A DNA stretch of 64,000 nucleotides. It comes from Thermoplasmatota archaeon. GTDB lineage: Archaea > Thermoplasmatota > E2 > DHVEG-1. The position numbers and the translations under genes are program-made. Below the pieces are notes generated by a model that saw only the letters and a list, made by a program, of their open reading frames with translations, ran no database searches and was not told the origin of the DNA. Each line of letters opens with the position of its first letter. Positions within the stretch are counted from its first letter, which is position 1. Shown here piece after piece: positions 2,088 to 17,945 of the stretch. Location: assembly GCA_030619765.1 (NCBI GenBank), contig JAUXAU010000005.1, positions 795 through 64,794 of the forward strand, given 5' to 3'.

Positions 2088-2340
2088 TTTTTAATCCCTC
2101 CATATTATCAACACCACTACTTTTTAATCTCATTAAAAGTTGGAGATAACTCACTGACTTATGAATGGTGTTCAGATCATTGACCTTATTTTTCCAAACA
2201 TTCATAGTCTTGTCATCGAGCGATAAATCCCCAATCAAATCGACTGCTATCATCTTCAAACACTCGACCAGATCATAGTACCCACCGAATCCTTCCTGAG
2301 CTAGAAGATCATCCAGTTTGTTCCAATCTTCACGGTTCAT
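2080..2340 (-). CDS. Hypothetical protein
   Basis: ATGA overlap with the DUF4326 gene; operon packing. Confidence 0.7.
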   Translation of the reverse strand: MNREDWNKLDDLLAQEGFGGYYDLVECLKMIAVDLIGDLSLDDKTMNVWKNKVNDLNTIHKSVSYLQLLMRLKSSGVDNMEGLKNE

Positions 2341-2666
2341 TTTTTATTTACCTCAAAATCCAACTTTTCAACCAATTCAACTAACACATCACCATGGCAC
2401 GCCTCTGGCTTACACCAACAACACAATGTTTTTCCCTCAAGCTCATGGAGACAACCAAGCAGTTTCGGATTATCCTGTAAATATTCTCTGTATAATTCAA
2501 TTGACTTTTGTCTACCATGTTTTTTTACAGAAAATGGATTATGCCATTTCGATTGTTGGAATGGAGTAAAGTAAACAGATCTGCCAATATAAGCATATTT
2601 GTCTGTTTCCTTCAATACTCTATTCCAAAAATCGGTCCCTTTGCCTTTCAAATTAATGACATTCAT
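2337..2666 (-). CDS. DUF4326 domain protein
   Basis: YIGR...SKWHNPF...YREYL...LEGKTLCCWCKPEACHGDVL family signature. Confidence 0.9.
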   Translation of the reverse strand: MNVINLKGKGTDFWNRVLKETDKYAYIGRSVYFTPFQQSKWHNPFSVKKHGRQKSIELYREYLQDNPKLLGCLHELEGKTLCCWCKPEACHGDVLVELVEKLDFEVNKK

Positions 2667-3077: not shown

Positions 3078-3120
3078 TAGCAATAGCTGACTTATTGGTT
3101 CTGGAAGTCAGCCATTGCTA
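3078..3120 (-). terminator. Stem-loop at the 3' end of TIGR array 1 (terminator or processing hairpin)
   Basis: Minus strand TAGCAATGGCTGACTT-11 nt-AAGTCAGCTATTGCTA; 16-bp stem fully paired as RNA on the minus strand (one G.U). Confidence 0.75.
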
Positions 3121-4277
3121 TAGTTCGCAATTATCGAATGGGCTTCATCCATTGCTTGGCTCGCACATTGTTTGTGGGCTTCAACCTTCCATTGGCTCGC
3201 ATTTTCTCCTTGGGCTTCACATTTTATGTGGCTCGCAATTTGTCAGTGGGCTTCACATTTTCACTGGCTCGCATTTTTTTATTGGGCTTCAACATTATAT
3301 TGGCTCGCACGCTTTCTTTGGGCTTCACCTATGTGATGGCTCGCACATCTCAAATGGGTTTCAATTATCAACTGGCTCGCACGTTGTTTATGGGCTTCAA
3401 CCTTCCACTGGCTCGCATTTCCCTATTGGGCTTCAATCATCAAATGGCTCGCATATATTCGATGGGCTTCACATTCCAACTGGCTCGCATATTGGATATG
3501 GTTTTCAAAGTTTTTATGGCTCGCATAAACCCCATGGGCGTCATAAGTTCACTGGCTCGCATCTATGACATGGGCTTCAACGCTTCTATGGCTCGCACGT
3601 TGCAAATGGGCTTCATGTTCTTCATGGCTCGCATCTTTTCCATGGTCTTCAAATCTAGAGTGGCTCGCATATCTCGATTGGGCTTCAACTTTCAACTGGC
3701 TCGCATTTTTCCAATGGGCTTCAACCATCTAATGGCTCGCAGCTTGTCAGTGGGCTTCAATCTTTTCCTGGCTCGCAGTTTTTCAATGGGCTTCAATCTC
3801 TCAGTGGCTCGCATGTCTACCCTGGGCTTCAAACTCCCTATGGCTCGCACTATTACAATGGGCTTCAGTATCCCGATGGCTCGCACTCTCTATATGGGCT
3901 TCGGATGTTACATGGCTCGCATTCACATCATGGGCTTCAGTCCTTTCCTGGCTCGCATATAGTATTTGGGCTTCAATATCCCATTGGCTCGCATTTCTTC
4001 TCTGGGCTTCAATCTTTATATGGCTCGCATATTTCCAATGGGCTTCAAATTGTACATGGCTCGCATTTTCTTCGTGGGCTTCAAATCCAAGATGGCTCGC
4101 ACTTTTGGTTTGGGCTTCAGTTATCAACTGGCTCGCACTATTACGATGGGCTTCAGTATCCCGATGGCTCGCAAATTCCCCCTGGGCTTCATTCTTAGAT
4201 TGGCTCGCATTTATTATCTGGGCTTCAACCCCTTATTGGCTCGCACATTTTATTTGGGTTTCAATCTTTTCTTGGCT
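3121..4277 (-). ncRNA. TIGR array 1 (tandem interspaced guide RNA array), 32 units of 36 nt
   Basis: Strict period TGCGAGCCA-N9-TGAAGCCCA-N9 on the minus strand, 64 variable 9-nt spacers each flanked by CCA and TG (one by CG); begins ~14 nt after the stop of a Nop-domain gene. Confidence 0.93.
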
Positions 4278-4291
4278 ATTTTTAACATCAT

Positions 4292-5176
4292 TTAGAAGTT
4301 GTATTTGCCTTCCCAGTCTACAGCATCTCTCCATGTAGTAACGTCTTTGTGTCCTAATGCCTCTTTCACATAGGGTTCTCTGACATCTAATCCTGCCATT
4401 TCCCTAGCACATCCATAATAATGGGCCAGGAAAAGCTTCCTCGTTACTCTGAGTGCCATGTTATGTGCATGCCCTTTTATGAGTTTGGTATCCTCTTTTT
4501 TGTATGGTTTACCGTATTTGGCTTCTAATTCACCTTCCGGGTATTTTCTGTTCAAATATCTTGTTTTAGCATCGTTGTAACATTTTCTATAGATTCCCTT
4601 GTTTTGTTTCATCAGATTATCACTGATTTTCCATGTAAAGGTCAGCAGACGCGGGTTGAACTTCTGATCCTTGTGTCGTTTAGGTGCTTTTCCATCTCCT
4701 GTTACATCATTGCCTGTATGGCACCATAAACTGGAAGTTGTATGGTATTGTGAACAATCGCCAAATTCTTTTAACAAATTTGCACTGATAACAGGGCCGA
4801 TGCCTCTGATTTTTTCCAGAAACTCGGTGTAGACTTTCTCTTGTAACACATACTCGAGCATCCTATTTTTATATTTGTCTTCGATGTTCTCCGATTCATC
4901 TGCCAGATCCCAGCACATTTGTACATATCTATGTTCATGTTCGGTGATTTCTTTCTTTTCAAGTAAATCATTCCACAGATTGAAAAGTTGCTTGTCTGTA
5001 TATTTCTTTTTGAAGTCTCTGTCTTCCTTTTTTTCTTCTACAGCGTCAAAATCTATTCCTTCTACTTTTTTTCTTATGATGTCTCTTATTCGATTTTTGG
5101 TGCTTATTCTTACTTCTTGCATATCATAGTAGGCACCTGCTACTATCCTGCCTAACATTTTTGTTATATCTGACAT
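4292..5176 (-). CDS. tasA: TIGR-associated Nop-domain protein without nuclease domain (TasA-like)
   Basis: Coiled coil YYDMQEVRI..KNR, IS110/Nop-like IRGIGPVISANLL..GD...SSLWCHTG, YRKCY..AK, KGHAHNMALR..RKLFLAH, PY...LGH. No RuvC/DEDD or HNH motifs. Flanked by TIGR arrays. Confidence 0.88.
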   Translation of the reverse strand: MSDITKMLGRIVAGAYYDMQEVRISTKNRIRDIIRKKVEGIDFDAVEEKKEDRDFKKKYTDKQLFNLWNDLLEKKEITEHEHRYVQMCWDLADESENIEDKYKNRMLEYVLQEKVYTEFLEKIRGIGPVISANLLKEFGDCSQYHTTSSLWCHTGNDVTGDGKAPKRHKDQKFNPRLLTFTWKISDNLMKQNKGIYRKCYNDAKTRYLNRKYPEGELEAKYGKPYKKEDTKLIKGHAHNMALRVTRKLFLAHYYGCAREMAGLDVREPYVKEALGHKDVTTWRDAVDWEGKYNF

Positions 5177-5346: not shown

Positions 5347-5508
5347 TCATTTTTTACCCTCTTCATCTAACTTATCAAGGCCGATATTTAAGATAATTCT
5401 CAACAACTCTGAATTATGTTTATACCTTCCAGAATTCATATAGGCCATAAATCGTTTGTATTGACTTTTTGTCGGTCTGACTATTAAACAATGATCGCTT
5501 TCTTCCAT
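5347..5508 (-). CDS. Ribbon-helix-helix (CopG-like) protein, 53 aa; not in the supplied ORF track
   Basis: Hand translation MEESDHCLIVRPTKSQYKRFMAYMNSGRYKHNSELLRIILNIGLDKLDEEGKK fits the strand-helix-GRY.x.SELLR-helix RHH pattern. Confidence 0.7.
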   Translation of the reverse strand: MEESDHCLIVRPTKSQYKRFMAYMNSGRYKHNSELLRIILNIGLDKLDEEGKK

Positions 5509-5537: not shown

Positions 5538-5565
5538 AAACCACCGGATTTTACCCCGGTGGCTT
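5538..5565 (-). terminator. Stem-loop at the 3' end of TIGR array 2
   Basis: Minus strand AAGCCACCGG-GGTAAAAT-CCGGTGGTTT, 10-bp stem with one G.U. Confidence 0.6.
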
Positions 5566-5962
5566 CGCATACCTTTTTTGGACTTCACAATATCAATGGC
5601 TCGCACATTTCCCATGGGCGTCAATACCCTACTGGCTCGCATATGTCAAGTGGGGTTCAAATCTGAAATGGCTCGCATATTGGGCATGGGCTTCAAATCT
5701 AAATTGGCTCGCACTATCACAATGGGCTTCAGTATCCCGATGGCTTGCATCTTTTTATTGGCCTTCAACATTTCATTGGCTCGCACTCTCTATATGGGCT
5801 TCAGATGTTACATGGCTCGCAGATTTTCAATGGGCTTCACTCTTCTATTGGCTCACACATCTCAGATGGACTTCATACACCAATTGGTTCCGCAAGATTT
5901 ATATGGATTTTACATATGCCGTGGCTTGCAGAAGATATATGCATTTTATACCCATTCTGGCG
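5560..5962 (-). ncRNA. TIGR array 2, ~10-11 units with degenerate ends
   Basis: Same edge and loop repeats and 9-nt spacers as array 1; shares spacer pairs with array 1. Confidence 0.9.
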
Positions 5963-17684: not shown

Positions 17685-17945
17685 TGCAAATAGTCAGATA
17701 AGAATTAGAATCTGGCAGACTATTGCGAGCCAATGTAAGGATGAAGCCCAATGGAAAAGTGCGAGCCATTATGCAGTTGAAGCCCAGTTGAAATATGCGA
17801 GCCATATAAAGATTGAAGCCCAAGAGTTTCTTGCGTATAGCCAAGATGGCTGTGAAACCCATGGAATTTCTGCGTAGCCAGGATGAATATGAAACCCACT
17901 TGGCACTTGCGTAAACCAACAAACACATGAAGGCCAAAAGATAGT
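17685..17945 (+). ncRNA. TIGR array 3 (orphan), 6 clear units plus 1 degenerate unit
   Basis: TGCGAGCCA-N9-TGAAGCCCA-N9 on the plus strand from 17724; edge repeats vary 9-12 nt; TATA-like TTTTAAA ~25 nt upstream. Confidence 0.9.

Follow-up and report, generated by a model that had tools for sequence, protein, structure and literature searches.

TIGR-Tas systems have been portrayed as fully programmable DNA binders that need no motif; where their spacers come from and what they naturally target are open questions. In the main text of Faure et al. 2025 (PMC12045711), the repeats of TIGR arrays are defined by a box D (UG) and a box C (CCA), spacer position 5 is the base registered by the C-5 rule, and the cut made by TasR and TasH falls beside the nucleotide that pairs with this base. 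A two-nucleotide seed by the cut has the closest contact with the coiled coil, according to the same text. For TasH, a lone mismatch at position 5 was described as leaving the whole spacer A heteroduplex unresolved (PMC13421893, main text). DNA binding and transcriptional repression by TasA proteins are reported in the main text of one preprint (bioRxiv 10.64898/2026.09.09.750476), and that of another reports that spacer B is the second to pair and does so more slowly (bioRxiv 10.64898/2026.08.11.744272). A base bias at position 5 was not found in the main texts of the TIGR-Tas literature searched, among them Faure et al. 2025, Xu et al. 2026, the TasH mismatch paper and application preprints.

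The window, a stretch of 64,000 nucleotides, is part of contig C96 of a 3.17-Mb host assembly (134 contigs, 35.7% G+C). A TFIIB/TFB gene is found at 40-993 (Pfam E 9e-51), about 2 kb from the first array, and a fibrillarin gene is located elsewhere in the host genome (contig C126:3992-4633; E 2e-78). These two genes show the host to be an archaeon with its own box C/D machinery beside the TIGR-TasA system.

When the window was analyzed with Tandem Repeats Finder, arrays with a 36-nt period were observed at about 3140-4270, 5630-5875 and 17724-17823. Array 1 (3125..4276, minus strand) consists of 32 units of 36 nt in perfect register. Read on the minus strand, each unit is built of UGCGAGCCA and UGAAGCCCA, in this order and each followed by a spacer of 9 nt. 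The array begins with a 5'-truncated repeat (GCCA) and ends with a 3'-truncated one (UGCGA). As it is UGCGAGCCA that is truncated at both ends, UGCGAGCCA was taken as the edge repeat, the spacer that follows it as spacer A, UGAAGCCCA as the loop repeat and the spacer after it as spacer B. On the minus strand, each of the two repeats opens with UG and closes with CCA, corresponding to boxes D and C. Dual-repeat TIGR arrays are characterized by two distinct repeats of 8-12 nt that alternate, spacers of about 9 nt and a 36-nt unit, and array 1 agrees with this in its 9+9+9+9 nt arrangement and exact 36-nt register. The edge repeat UGCGAGCCA has an extra predicted pair, C3-G6, which is replaced by U3-A6 in the UGUGAACCA of the relatives, a covariation seen at the sequence level; the loop repeats are unable to form this position 3/6 pair. 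Box C/D sRNAs carry the consensus boxes RUGAUGA (box C) and CUGA (box D), which form K-turns. The array repeats contain neither canonical box, which sets them apart from box C/D sRNAs, and Rfam gave no matches at E up to 1 in the window between 2900 and 6100.

An inverted repeat with 16-nt arms (94% complementary) is located directly downstream of array 1 (3078..3120, minus strand); it is hairpin-like and may be a terminator. Directly 3' of array 2, a G+C-rich hairpin followed by TTT was read by eye (5538..5563, minus strand). Neither hairpin was flagged in a simple consensus terminator scan of this archaeal DNA. A 53-aa ORF without a family match lies between array 2 and tasA (5347..5508, minus strand), and a DUF4326 gene is found downstream of array 1 (2337-2666, minus strand). 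When nine window proteins were sought beside TasA in 64 loci of relatives, only one match (DUF4326) was obtained, so that no conserved partner gene was found; the 53-aa ORF was absent beside TasA in these loci.

The tasA gene (4292..5176, minus strand) has array 2 on one side and array 1 on the other, all three sharing a strand, and encodes a Nop-domain protein of 294 aa. In Pfam, this protein gave a weak match to the IS110 C-terminal domain and none to HNH, RuvC or any other catalytic domain. A total of 117 homologues were found, and a profile built from the window TasA and 33 of them matched chain 9mty_A, a solved structure whose deposition names an IS110 C-terminal-domain protein (E 1e-45), as well as TasH chains (E 1e-25), the alignment covering TasH residues 84-302 and not the N-terminal part. 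The protein is therefore assigned, as a Tas homologue predicted to lack HNH and RuvC domains and adjoining an array, to the nuclease-less Tas proteins (TasA), and the locus belongs to the dual-repeat TIGR-TasA kind, which was first described in 2025. TasA occurs only sporadically in the host phylum. Of 401 genomes, three, counting that of the window, contained a match with E of 1e-10 or lower, and the two matches outside the window's genome are weak.

Position 5 is the central spacer base and lies five nucleotides after box C (CCA). The initial annotation had named the fifth guide position as the registered site of box C/D guides (D+5 rule); in TIGR arrays it is the base of the C-5 rule in the main text of Faure et al. 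2025 (PMC12045711). Among the 64 spacers of array 1, position 5 is A in 40, G in 16, C in 8 and U in none. These counts are exactly those given in the initial annotation, whose further counts were also reproduced in full (26/32 B spacers carry A at position 7, 19/32 A spacers have a final U and 27/32 B spacers a final purine).

The spacers of array 1 are purine-rich on the guide strand (42% A, 25% G, 25.3% U and 8% C), and from position 1 to 9 U occurs 29, 28, 18, 8, 0, 13, 8, 20 and 22 times out of 64. The absence of U at position 5 (U5) is thus placed within a purine-rich core, yet it lies below the neighbouring positions. When positions 2-8 were shuffled within spacers, 13.6 U5 were expected (exact P of zero, 8e-8), in line with the initial claim that the spacers are not random at this position. 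Shuffling of positions 4-7 only gave an expectation of 7.2 (P 1.3e-4). For de-duplication, one spacer was kept per set within Hamming distance 3; 30 spacers remained, still with no U5 (P 2e-4 for positions 2-8 and 3.5e-3 for positions 4-7). The zero could in principle be the tail of a gradient, that is, a local compositional extreme of a purine- or A-rich core at positions 4-7. Such a reading gains from the low U over these four positions (8, 0, 13 and 8 of 64), from purines making up 66% of spacer bases, from the rise of P under the narrower shuffle and the strict de-duplication, and from the post hoc choice of the column. The arrays of relatives, described below, bear on it directly.

Shared ancestry, in which the 64 spacers would descend from a few duplicated units that lacked U5 by chance, was also considered. 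Units 3/11 and 24/30 of array 1 are clear duplicates, and units are duplicated between arrays 1, 2 and 3 as well. Only these two unit pairs, and perhaps 16/25, are closer than column-shuffled arrays predict, however, and the other close spacer pairs are as numerous as in such shuffled arrays. Apart from two or three duplicated units, the likeness of array 1 spacers is therefore explained by column composition. Because the U5 deficit also survives de-duplication and recurs in unrelated arrays (see below), we regard shared ancestry as very improbable. From the shuffle, de-duplication and column-shuffle tests together, we conclude that the U5 gap is real, exceeds composition and is not a by-product of recent duplication; the bias named in the initial annotation persists after correction for both.

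Array 2 (5565..5930, minus strand) comprises about 10 units with degenerate leading units and a 3'-truncated edge repeat (UGCGA) at its end. Array 3 (17724..17945, plus strand) has three well-formed units followed by three with altered edge repeats. Each of these arrays contains one U5, in both cases in the last well-formed unit. Three position-5 exceptions had originally been listed for arrays 2 and 3; two were counted here. No U5 was found in the degenerate units of arrays 2 and 3 after they were re-registered by eye. When the three arrays were pooled, U5 was present in 2 of 88 spacers against 20.7 expected.

At 17832-17945, the loop repeats of array 3 are kept and the edge repeats carry insertions of 1-3 nt (10-12 nt, not 9), so that the 3' part of this array looks like a decaying tail. 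Several units are shared among the arrays. In a comparison of 3885-3956 with 5749-5856, unit 10 of array 1 was the same as unit 3 of array 2 in both spacers, and unit 11 of array 1 was one base apart from unit 5 of array 2, which has an additional unit in between. Spacer A of the third unit of array 3 (17796-17831) is the same as spacer A of unit 7 of array 1 (4029). Whole units common to the three arrays point to unit-level copying or recombination between them.

An antisense reading frame extends through almost the whole of array 1 (3138-4295, plus strand), and UUA, CUA and UCA are absent at guide positions 2-4. If this frame constrained the spacers, a guide U5 would become the third-codon A needed for TAA and TGA. 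Across array 1, one stop was counted against 7.2 expected by column shuffling, and none of 2000 shuffles was as low, as such a constraint would predict. However, this shuffle already holds U5 at zero, and the stop deficit arises at guide positions 2-4 (0 against 5.9). Stop avoidance would bar only a minority of U5 contexts, the U profile of array 1 has no 3-base period, and the relatives show no stop avoidance (33 against 38.5). The antisense frame was therefore rejected as the cause of the U5 deficit on the origin of the stop deficit at positions 2-4 and on the relatives, and we consider it scarcely credible.

Two further candidates were analyzed and rejected. A closing pair between the spacer bases that flank the repeats (A9-B1, and B9 with the next A1) showed no excess of pairing in the window or in the clade of its relatives, and no adjacent-position dependency or UG pseudo-box was significant.

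As position 5 was chosen after inspection of the window, clean evidence can come only from arrays outside it. An alignment-based search yielded 51 TasA-clade loci (44 metagenome, 5 genome and 2 viral) whose TasA shares 37-64% identity with that of the window; the five genome loci came from the alignment-based scan of genome contigs, in which a single-sequence scan had detected no TasA relative. Spacers were taken only between an edge-type and a loop-type repeat with at most one mismatch to the consensus set, and identical repeat-spacer-repeat strings were removed. In this way, 40 of the 51 loci gave 478 spacers.

In spacer B of the clade, U5 was found in 37 of 246 spacers (15%) against 68.4 expected, and none of 100,000 simulations was as low, while A5 was enriched (145 against 108.4 expected). 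After removal within Hamming distance 2, 24 U5 remained against 39.1 expected (P 7e-4). Among the 30 loci with at least three B spacers, 25 were below the U5 expectation (sign test P 3e-4), and each of the three repeat subtypes showed the dip. Among the central cells of the clade, U5 and A5 of spacer B stand out as the most extreme. The order of bases at this position is A > G > C > U, with G (42/246) and C (22/246) at or below the levels of the flanking positions. In spacer A, no significant depletion of U5 was observed (64/232, 28%, against 72.1 expected; P 0.11), whereas A5 was enriched (112 against 93.6 expected; P 0.004).

The dip in spacer B is limited to a single position, with 25, 15 and 26% U at positions 4, 5 and 6, and in a bootstrap over clade loci U5 minus the mean of U4 and U6 ranged from -0.17 to -0.05. 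A dip at position 5 that recurs in independent loci without depletion of the flanks speaks against a compositional gradient, and we now rate the compositional extreme set out above as rather improbable.

Within the clade, U5 was equally frequent in B spacers by perfect repeats (18/118) and by mutated ones (19/128), that is, no relaxation was seen. The effect was absent in the 31 GC-rich B spacers, but the trend with spacer GC content is non-monotonic and the numbers are small. U5 was less common in interior units (28/164) than at chain ends (33/108; P 0.011).

Other positions of the clade spacers are not uniform either. U makes up about 50% at spacer position 1, spacer A tends toward a final U and spacer B toward a final A or G. 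In the window and in loci L185-L235, these semi-conserved positions 1 and 9 seem to extend the recognition of the repeats and not to be part of the guide content. In spacer A of the clade, A7 is enriched (105 against 83), and G7 (19 against 34) and A8 (59 against 83) are depleted.

Viral arrays were analyzed in two sets. For the first, two pattern scans gave 154 viral loci, of which 23 with UGCGAGCCA-type arrays yielded 365 spacers; the TasA match, where found, was 22-45% identical to the window TasA. U5 showed no effect in this set (88 against 93.2 expected; 45 against 47.9 and 43 against 45.3) and was present in about 24% of spacers. The scan for UG...CCA with 9-nt repeats and spacers also returned matches not of the UGCGAGCCA type. 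These were rejected as TIGR arrays, being mostly collagen-like coding repeats with a 9-nt period that show CC at "spacer" positions 7-8, and 702 such "spacers" were dropped. Likewise, four UG....CCA 9-mers at 18-nt spacing in viral contigs L044-L184 are mostly collagen-like and represent a trap for motif-based TIGR searches.

The second viral set was collected once the hypothesis was fixed and consists of 42 further loci, 26 of which gave 507 new spacers. Here U5 was depleted, with 101 observed against 127.6 expected in total (spacer A, 55 against 66.3, P 0.04; spacer B, 46 against 61.3, P 0.008), and 20 of the 26 loci were below expectation (P 0.009). A5 was not enriched in these 507 spacers. 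The relaxation at array ends seen in the clade was not replicated (U5 in 53/230 interior and 21/120 end spacers). Spacers A and B of the more distant viral arrays both have G as their last base. The arrays of cultured phages (Salicola CGphi29, Microcystis Mvi-JY20 and Ralstonia RSL1) were too small for statistics.

The host genome contains a second TIGR-Tas locus of a different type (L239, contig C16:24048-27596), with a 239-aa Tas-like ORF at 1336-2055 of the locus (profile E 2.7e-29) and an array downstream of it at about 2090-2900. This array has about 20 units with the repeats AGCGAG[CT]CA and AGAAAACCA and is similar to the array type of the Salicola phage TasH (8-nt spacers and a conserved A). 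U5 was found in 6 of its 40 spacers.

Taken together, the composition-corrected test outside the window was positive for spacer B of the clade and for the second viral set, and negative for the first viral set and for spacer A of the clade. U5 is disfavoured to a varying degree in this repeat family, most strongly in the TasA clade of the window and in spacer B, and it is nowhere forbidden. The initial wording that the base is "never U" does not hold as a requirement in view of the U5 frequencies of the clade (15% in spacer B, 28% in spacer A), the first viral set (about 24%) and the C16 array (6/40). The avoidance of U5 is a preference, not a prohibition, and the array of the window is the extreme case of a graded preference in its TasA clade.

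We propose, with about even confidence, that the cause of this preference is selection on working guides, which would disfavour U and favour A at the central, registered base pair. Guide segments would then be under a position-specific constraint at position 5, where uridine is disfavoured and adenine (or purine) favoured. Units with U5 would perform worse in target engagement by the TasA-tigRNA complex or in tigRNA persistence and would be lost, so that natural guides would have been filtered for performance at a sensitive central pair. The order A > G > C > U in spacer B of the clade points to an adenine- or purine-specific or a U-specific feature. Plain duplex stability is a poor fit as the cause of the U5 deficit, since neither G nor C is enriched at position 5. 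The rU:dA pair is a notably weak one. Candidates for the physical cause would be this weak rU:dA pair in the seed of an AT-rich hybrid of only 9 bp, the way in which the RNP stacks the central base or reads it out strand-specifically, or a U-specific liability of the RNA. The stronger effect in spacer B could arise because spacer B pairs second and more slowly, which would make it the more demanding half.

The bias may instead have been present when the spacers were born. The unit-making process or the natural targets would carry T opposite position 5, with A on the displaced strand, and the column would record origin and not performance. The origin of spacers and their targets are stated to be unknown in the main texts of PMC12045711 and bioRxiv 10.64898/2026.09.09.750476, and the base order in spacer B of the clade resembles base choice more than pair strength. 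The difference between interior and end units would have favoured ongoing selection; as it failed to replicate, an acquisition or target footprint is still a live rival. On the other side, no neighbouring position co-varies with position 5 and there is no flanking motif, and a single internal base would be an odd footprint for an integration that takes its measure from the ends. Conserved adaptation genes were likewise not found next to TasA.

Self-targeting was also analyzed. When 43 distinct spacer pairs were compared with the 3.17-Mb host assembly in both target architectures, no perfect match was found and self-targeting was rejected. Targets with at most one mismatch numbered at most one in either architecture, the same as in the control, which also speaks against a target motif as the source of the bias. 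With at most two mismatches there were 36 and 37 matches against 53 in the control arrangement, and thus no excess. On balance, we consider an origin of the bias in acquisition or targets unlikely. The initial annotation had suggested such a motif or, alternatively, a base-specific activity at the paired nucleotide, and neither is backed by the locus, in which no catalytic domain of TasA (Pfam), no conserved neighbour gene and no flanking motif were found.

A bolder reading is that TasA complexes of this clade discriminate the orientation of the central A:T pair because something is read or done at the registered nucleotide, in the manner of the box C/D D+5 rule, or that the unit-making process breaks DNA at this point. 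As an example, a recruited enzyme might have as its substrate the target T, or else the A left exposed when the strand is displaced. We see this as a long shot. If it were true, the position-5 column would be the first sequence footprint of the origin of TIGR spacers or of a hidden TasA-linked activity.

If the preference holds, it would provide a practical design rule (A rather than U at position 5), evidence at the sequence level for the reported asymmetry between the two spacers, and a concrete column by which selection on guide performance could be separated from an acquisition footprint in the large published catalogue of roughly 65,000 dual-repeat tigRNAs (TIGRSafari). If the bias reflects only a mild effect on performance, it is a refinement and not a new principle.

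Compared with other guided systems, TIGR-TasA shares with the box C/D sRNP a Nop-domain dimer, a bipartite guide and a fixed register at the fifth nucleotide (D+5 rule), whereas its repeats lack the C/D consensus boxes and the target of TIGR-Tas is DNA. We know of no base preference at the registered position of C/D guides. Guides of Cas9 and Cas12 show position-dependent base effects; for example, U-rich seeds perform poorly. The likeness is that base identity affects guide performance with complementarity unchanged, and the difference is that the Cas9 and Cas12 effects come from engineered libraries while the TIGR signal is observed in natural arrays and at a single central position. The bridge RNA of IS110 has a core dinucleotide, a strict central requirement that is tied to strand exchange. 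IS110 resembles the present system in a related Nop-like RNA-binding domain and in a sequence requirement that is fixed at the centre, where the chemistry takes place, but its core is strict, whereas the position-5 preference of TIGR arrays is statistical and has no known chemistry.

Among the TIGR-Tas systems themselves, the C-5 rule and the seed described for TasR and TasH in the main texts of PMC12045711 and PMC13421893 place the biased column at the cut-registering base, which lies in the mismatch-sensitive seed or next to it. In those texts, mismatches were tested and not the best matched base, and the TasA of the window differs in having no nuclease. The closest systems are the dual-repeat TIGR-TasA loci (Faure et al. 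2025, PMC12045711; Xu et al. 2026, bioRxiv 10.64898/2026.09.09.750476), which have the same 36-nt units, 9-nt repeats and spacers and UG...CCA repeats, the same shortening of the edge repeat where an array begins and ends, a solo-Nop tas gene flanked by arrays and a Tas protein homologous to solved Tas structures. The locus of the window shows no architectural difference from them, and what is new, judged against the main texts searched, is the base preference at spacer position 5 in natural arrays.
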